From: Escherichia phage ECO95 1-6-1
DNA length: 2,876 nt
Sequence record: OR845378.1
Direction: 5' to 3' (one strand)
Each line of letters opens with the position of its first letter. Positions within the stretch are counted from its first letter, which is position 1. Under the pieces are notes generated by a model that was not told the DNA's origin, searched no databases, and was given only the letters and a program-made list of their open reading frames with translations. Shown piece by piece: positions 2,781 through 2,876 of this stretch. A program made the position numbers and the translations under genes.

Positions 2781-2794
2781 TCTGAATTAAACCT

Positions 2795-2798
2795 GGAG
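2795..2798 (+). promoter_or_regulatory. Shine-Dalgarno (GGAG) for the downstream gene
   Basis: GGAG at 2795-2798, 5-nt spacer, ATG at 2804-2806; only 23 nt separate it from the vgrG stop, suggesting co-transcription. Confidence 0.5.
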
Positions 2799-2803
2799 TT
2801 CTC

Positions 2804-2876
2804 ATGGATCGACCATACCGCATACAGGAAGGGTGTTTTGTCCTGCCTGAAACATTTACGGATCGCAGCGTTAATA
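2804..2876 (+). CDS. 5-prime end (24 codons) of downstream gene, truncated by window edge; N-terminus resembles DUF1795/EagR-family T6SS effector-associated chaperones
   Basis: Translation [24 protein letters not shown]. The pattern Y-x-x-x-E-G-x-x-x-L-P-x-x-x-x-D-R-S-V-N matches what I recall of the N-terminal beta-strand of DUF1795 (Eag) chaperones encoded between vgrG and rhs/prePAAR effector genes in Enterobacteriaceae. Good RBS and tight spacing after vgrG. Family assignment is from memory and only 24 residues are visible. Confidence 0.45.

Follow-up and report, generated by a model that had tools for sequence, protein, structure and literature searches.

A sciW-like Eag chaperone gene, almost certainly sciW of Salmonella SPI-6, begins directly after vgrG at the end of a 2,876-nucleotide window of record OR845378.1

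The closest described counterpart of the locus analyzed here is the vgrS–sciW–rhs1 system of Salmonella Typhimurium. Ahmad et al. (2020) solved the structures of apo SciW and of the SciW–Rhs1NT complex, in which the SciW dimer binds the transmembrane (TM) helices of Rhs1 through its hydrophobic face, mimicking helix packing in the membrane (PMC7773334). Rhs1 lacking its N-terminus does not bind SciW, and the prePAAR motif aids the interaction between PAAR and VgrG (PMC7773334). According to the VgrS preprint, the split PAAR depends on an Eag chaperone both to be soluble and to interact with VgrS, and Rhs1 is the only SPI-6 effector whose loading mechanism has been defined (10.1101/2024.12.20.629533). 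The stability of the SciW–TMD complex and TMD release were measured in a 2026 paper (PMC12881460). The Typhimurium toxin tip, TreTu, ADP-ribosylates EF-Tu (PMC9825190), and the diversity of Rhs tips in variable region 3 of SPI-6 has already been surveyed (PMC10469887). Effector-bound crystal structures have been published for two Eag chaperones, SciW being one of them, and the partners of SciW, VgrS and Rhs1, are also characterized. A full description of the system exists already (Ahmad et al. 2020; Jurenas et al. 2022), so the feature described below is an ordinary one, of little importance beyond correct annotation.

The window, by which we mean the whole stretch of DNA analyzed (2,876 nucleotides, recorded under Escherichia phage ECO95 1-6-1), aligns end to end and without gaps with eight Salmonella enterica loci at 97.9–98.8%. 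Its positions 1–590 and 2781–2876 are 100% identical to S. Typhimurium CP074094.1 (L074). Because of these gapless alignments and identical flanks, we assign the window, on sequence comparison, to SPI-6 type VI secretion island DNA of Salmonella enterica type with a mosaic vgrG. This kinship first surfaced through a protein search with VgrG and the contigs encoding the proteins found, and 14 Salmonella loci (L073–L080, L082–L087) were read. No Salmonella locus was present among the loci of VgrG relatives taken from genome contigs, where an Enterobacteriaceae MAG (L057) gave the best syntenic match. The 73-nt sciW fragment was not found in genome contigs, nor was a 43-nt pattern spanning the vgrG–sciW junction found in metagenome contigs. 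Coordinates of the features are collected in Table 1.

Table 1. Features at the end of the window, followed by Rhs1 toxin tips and SymE_toxin genes in the Salmonella loci
Feature	Location	Strand	Remarks
vgrG (tssI; VgrS in Salmonella)	591..2780	+	729-aa T6SS spike protein, effector carrier; Pfam matches and Shine-Dalgarno sequence
vgrG–sciW spacer	2781..2803	+	23 nt; Shine-Dalgarno GGAG at 2795–2798; no terminator
sciW 5′ end (Eag/DUF1795 chaperone; almost certain)	2804..2876	+	codons 1–24 plus one base; window end cuts the gene
Tip TreTu_C	L074		followed by TriTu
Tip WHH	L073		followed by SUKH protein
Tip Ntox47	L076, L077		followed by DUF6756
Tip AHH	L082–84, L087		
Tip without Pfam family	L075		SGEPIGSENNPF
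Tip without Pfam family	L078–80		ISKDGRYHGPKPTYENPGHHEP
Tip without Pfam family	L085		TGTYMFTDGSNWYIGKG
SymE_toxin	L074 19456–19731	-	PF08845
SymE_toxin	L075 11194–11508	-	PF08845; likewise in L076, L078–L080, L082–L087

The 729-aa ORF encodes a VgrG spike protein, as shown by Pfam matches to Phage_GPD (E 2.4e-100), Phage_base_V and Gp5_trimer_C. Read directly from the sequence, its stop codon is TGA (2778–2780), and the GGAG in the spacer stands 5 nt before an ATG (2804–2806). The earlier note had reported this start, its Shine-Dalgarno (SD) sequence and the encoded peptide, and both coordinates and peptide agree with our reading. Its wording placed the SD as well as the ATG 23 nt after the stop; this distance holds from stop to ATG, the SD lying inside the spacer. 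The frame remains open for 24 codons (2804..2875), and codon 25 begins at base 2876. Taken alone, a 24-codon frame with a 4-base SD is no proof of a gene. The 24-aa fragment matches PF08786 (DcrB, formerly DUF1795) with an E-value of 0.0025; its 18.3 bits fall short of the gathering score, 27.2. The Eag/DUF1795-like N-terminus proposed earlier was a sound lead in this respect, and the match of the fragment, being under the threshold, is a fair lead and not proof. PF08786 is the sole family matched by the fragment and by full-length relatives in Pfam at E up to 10; under the same setting neither gave a match to DUF4123 or DUF2169. Judged by eye, the N-terminus has a charged and polar character and shows neither a hydrophobic leader or signal peptide nor an evident lipobox. 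The ORF lies directly 3′ of vgrG on the same strand, the position expected of an Eag chaperone gene. A 45-aa ORF on the minus strand (2686..2823), overlapping the end of vgrG and the start of sciW, was dismissed as a usual antisense frame with no support.

The relatives carry the frame beyond the window end. In all 14 Salmonella loci the TGA of vgrG is found 23 nt ahead of the same ATG, and bases 2781–2876 (96 bases) show 0 or 1 difference from each of them. The frame continues there into a 148-aa protein, identical in 14/14 loci, which falls within the 140–160 aa anticipated for a downstream DUF1795 protein. This protein matches PF08786 with an E-value of 9.9e-40 (136 bits) and is identical at 148/148 positions to the SciW chain of PDB 6XRR; 6XRB and 9MVG, both SciW, are matched at E about 1e-98. 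The next relatives in the PDB are EagT6 (6XRF; E 3e-4) and PA0094 (1TU1). The 24 residues encoded in the window are residues 1–24 of the Salmonella protein and of the 6XRR SciW chain, and codon 11 specifies Cys, in agreement with C11 named in the SciW structure paper (PMC7773334). We conclude that the ORF at 2804 almost certainly represents the first 24 codons of sciW, the Eag/DUF1795 chaperone gene of Salmonella SPI-6, located 23 nt after vgrG, presumably co-transcribed with it and equipped with its own SD. The window ends at codon 24, and near-identical relatives indicate that the source strain itself very probably has the same intact genes.

Because the spacer contains an SD, lacks a terminator and has a conserved length, it is reasonable to read vgrG and sciW as one operon, in which co-transcription would be expected. 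A motif scan revealed no terminator-like sites in the spacer, and promoter and terminator counts across the whole window were at chance level. The Rfam scan of the window returned one match, with an E-value of 0.26 and far under the gathering score.

Outside Salmonella, the distance from vgrG to the ATG is 23 nt in Escherichia sp. L001 and E. coli GF4-3 and 22 nt in the Enterobacteriaceae MAG, so that frame, start and a spacing of 22–23 nt are kept at 78–88% DNA identity. Escherichia sp. L001 encodes a 147-aa ortholog of the chaperone. The PGAP names in E. coli GF4-3 read, in order, Vgr family protein, DcrB-related protein and RHS repeat-associated core domain-containing protein, and in the MAG vgrG is followed by genes for a 147-aa PF08786 protein, a 1376-aa prePAAR/PAAR/Rhs protein and Imm26. 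VgrG proteins of the Escherichia/Shigella loci share 85% protein identity with that of the window. Megablast against complete E. coli genomes gave no match, and blastn against the same genomes gave matches at 78–79% identity.

Shigella flexneri SFBU1023 (L002, 12237–12689) and a genome labeled ‘E. coli’ ECMA0423 (L009) contain an eag ortholog frameshifted after about codon 65. Their vgrG is 85% identical, and rhs is broken up into three ORFs (135, 796 and 329 aa); the module in this lineage is a pseudogene. The MAG harbors two orphan Rhs C-terminal cassettes at 5611–9145. The second of them (7419–8663, then Imm26 at 8657–9145) is a near duplicate of the main toxin tip and immunity gene, and the tip in this genome shows a weak GIY-YIG match (E 1e-3).

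The gene order vgrG–sciW–rhs1–immunity is conserved among the relatives. In 14/14 Salmonella loci rhs1 begins 18 nt after the sciW stop, behind GGAGG, and its product has 1354–1366 aa in 13 of them; in L086 it is truncated at 977 aa. The Rhs1 N-terminus, MYEAARVDDPIYH, fits the prePAAR motif AARxxDxxxH and is followed by hydrophobic TM segments, and residues 2–59 match the Rhs1 fragment present in PDB 6XRR and 9MVG. Pfam matches of Rhs1 from the relatives include PF25799 prePAAR_I (class I; E 7e-23), PAAR_motif (E 2e-16), RHS_repeat (E 1e-61), DUF6531 and RHS core. The small gene 3′ of rhs1 encodes an immunity protein of the TriTu, SUKH or DUF6756 type or an unnamed one. The earlier note had predicted an effector with prePAAR and TM helices, then PAAR and Rhs, and a small immunity gene after it, and the closest relatives bear out each element. 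It had also named what would speak against its reading, namely a DUF4123 or DUF2169 adaptor or the lack of a PAAR/Rhs-type effector, and neither was seen in any relative. Its interpretation is supported by these comparisons, as far as relatives can stand for the source strain. On its further suggestion, that the toxin domain may be uncharacterized, the relatives divide, three of their seven tip types lying outside Pfam and four inside.

The shell of Rhs1 is 94–99% identical among the five Salmonella loci compared. Class I prePAAR Rhs effectors have one TMD region and a DPxGL cleavage motif; in Rhs1 of the relatives this motif lies near residue 1250 (about 1251) and is followed by a polymorphic tip of 103–126 aa. 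Seven unrelated tip types are found at this point in the 14 loci, four with a Pfam family and three without one (Table 1). For two of the three Pfam-less types, those of L075 and L078–80, the PDB was searched and yielded spurious matches only, with no relatives. Further 3′, the Salmonella loci contain orphan cassettes of rhs C-termini with immunity genes. Nearly every Salmonella locus read also has SymE_toxin genes (PF08845) on the opposite strand among these orphan cassettes.

Other explanations of the ORF were weighed against its reading as sciW in a working module. Frames of 24 codons and 4-base SDs are common by chance, and the window alone offers nothing stronger, so one could regard the ORF as a chance frame after vgrG with a fortuitous GGAG and no gene behind it. 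However, the peptide agrees in all its residues with a protein whose structure has been solved, and frame, start and spacing are conserved from Salmonella to Escherichia and the MAG. This explanation is refuted by conservation in the 14 Salmonella loci together with identity to the solved protein, and its probability is practically nil. A true DcrB-type periplasmic lipoprotein, in place of a cytoplasmic T6SS chaperone, is suggested by nomenclature, as DcrB is the present name of the matching Pfam family and the E. coli ortholog is a ‘DcrB-related protein’ in the PGAP annotation. The N-terminus argues otherwise, having by eye no hydrophobic signal peptide or evident lipobox, and so does the position of the ORF between vgrG and a prePAAR effector gene in every locus. 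Furthermore, the relative is identical to SciW, a soluble chaperone crystallized in complex with the TM helices of Rhs1. We regard a DcrB-type lipoprotein as extremely improbable and refuted by the identity to PDB 6XRR.

The only live alternative keeps the ORF as sciW and supposes that the source strain has a decayed module, with sciW or rhs1 frameshifted, truncated or replaced and no working effector left. Decay of this kind does occur: rhs1 is cut short in one of the 14 Salmonella loci (L086), and the Shigella flexneri eag ortholog is frameshifted with rhs in pieces. The vgrG of the window is, besides, a mosaic allele not met elsewhere. Against this, SciW is intact and identical in every one of the 14 Salmonella loci, only L086 lacks a full-length rhs1, and the flanks of the window are indistinguishable from a Typhimurium genome with intact genes. 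We consider decay in the source strain improbable, and retain the reading of the ORF as the start of sciW in an intact module.

On this reading of the ORF as sciW, the gene product would act in the way established for SciW. A SciW dimer in the cytoplasm would keep the TM helices of Rhs1 soluble and unfolded, and the prePAAR motif would complete the split PAAR domain, allowing the effector to cap the VgrS trimer. SciW would then release these helices, and the Rhs cage would be fired into a rival cell together with its C-terminal toxin. The product of the small immunity gene directly 3′ of rhs1 would protect the producer. The literature supplies TMD binding, the dependence of PAAR solubility and VgrS interaction on an Eag chaperone, and toxin activity; the present analysis supplies locus identity, conserved gene order and, in relatives, the assignment of the full-length gene to DUF1795.

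The vgrG gene preceding sciW is an allele of its own. In a protein search the window VgrG is 98–99% identical to >100 Salmonella enterica VgrG proteins, the closest differing at 5 residues and those at 99% identity by 5–10 aa. An exact look-up of the 729-aa protein found no identical entry, and the exact allele is absent from the genome and metagenome collections scanned, including a scan of metagenome contigs with a 40-nt stretch over SNPs private to the window. The strong SD (AAAGGAG, 578–584) before the start at 591 indicates that a wrong start is not the reason for the missing match. Compared with S. Typhimurium CP074094.1, the window has 35 mismatches, all inside vgrG and 18 of them within 1787–1849, which place the two VgrG proteins 8 residues apart. 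Mismatches against L078 cluster at 1634–1781, and those against L073 and L075 show a triplet at 1856–1858. Six vgrG SNPs are private to the window (1002, 1096, 1139, 1142, 1145 and 1262), and its VgrG carries P138 and D169 where nearly all of the 25 closest database proteins carry T and G. This vgrG is a mosaic allele and looks like a product of recombination between vgrG alleles. Residues 1–120 of VgrG (window 591–950) form an Ala/Gly-rich N-terminal extension of ~120 aa, with Phage_GPD starting at residue 121. A VgrS construct without the first 81 residues (VgrS 81–729) was made in the VgrS preprint (10.1101/2024.12.20.629533).

At the other end of the window, positions 1–194 (+) hold the last 63 codons of an ORF entering from upstream, which includes GYSHGCIEVEPVFFRIL. 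This is the C-terminus of the 173-aa gene preceding vgrG in the Salmonella loci. It has weak Pfam matches, to Tlde1_dom (E 0.005) and YkuD (E 0.011), which would fit the SPI-6 L,D-transpeptidase-like effector Tlde1, and the DUF2195 gene before this 173-aa gene would be its immunity gene. The 396 nt between tlde1 and vgrG (195–590) are AT-rich, with a GC content of 0.33 vs about 0.6 in vgrG; they are identical to Typhimurium L074 and show 8–9 differences from other serovars. A promoter scan found no convincing + strand promoter in 195–590. SPI-6 is reportedly silenced by H-NS, and AT-rich DNA at this position would fit.

For a strain with this vgrG–sciW junction an Rhs1 effector is to be expected. 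The conserved vgrS–sciW–rhs1 scaffold provides a reliable anchor for reading the toxin tip and immunity gene of a Salmonella strain, several tip types at the rhs1 locus still having no Pfam family. It is conceivable, though we would not count on it, that the Rhs1 tip of the source strain belongs to no described family, in which case the window would be the entry to an uncharacterized toxin–immunity pair on the characterized VgrS–SciW–Rhs1 carrier.

Compared with SciW of S. Typhimurium (PDB 6XRB, apo; 6XRR and 9MVG, with the Rhs1 N-terminus), the gene occupies the same place, separated by 23 nt from vgrS and by 18 nt from rhs1, and shows no detectable difference in the 24 readable codons, all 24 residues being those of SciW 1–24; the adjoining vgrG differs. 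The gene predicted to follow is that of Rhs1/Rhs-main (STM0291), which bears a TreTu ADP-ribosyltransferase tip and is paired with TriTu. Rhs1 of L074 resembles STM0291 in its succession of prePAAR_I, PAAR, RHS and TreTu_C, then TriTu. The STM0291 tip is one of the seven types at this locus, and the source strain may differ. DcrB of E. coli and Salmonella, the namesake of PF08786, shares its Pfam family, and so its fold, with SciW. DcrB is an exported periplasmic lipoprotein not known to be related to the T6SS; unlike it, the ORF of the window has no signal peptide or evident lipobox and sits in a vgrG–rhs operon. EagR1 of Pseudomonas protegens, EagR of Serratia marcescens and EagT6 of P. aeruginosa (1TU1, 6XRF) belong to the same DUF1795 family as SciW, with distant sequence similarity only, and perform the same job, chaperoning the N-terminal TM helices of VgrG-loaded prePAAR effectors (PMC7773334). 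EagT6 serves the class II effector Tse6, which has two TMD regions and is bound pseudosymmetrically, whereas SciW and EagR1 serve class I Rhs effectors and bind them asymmetrically (PMC7773334).
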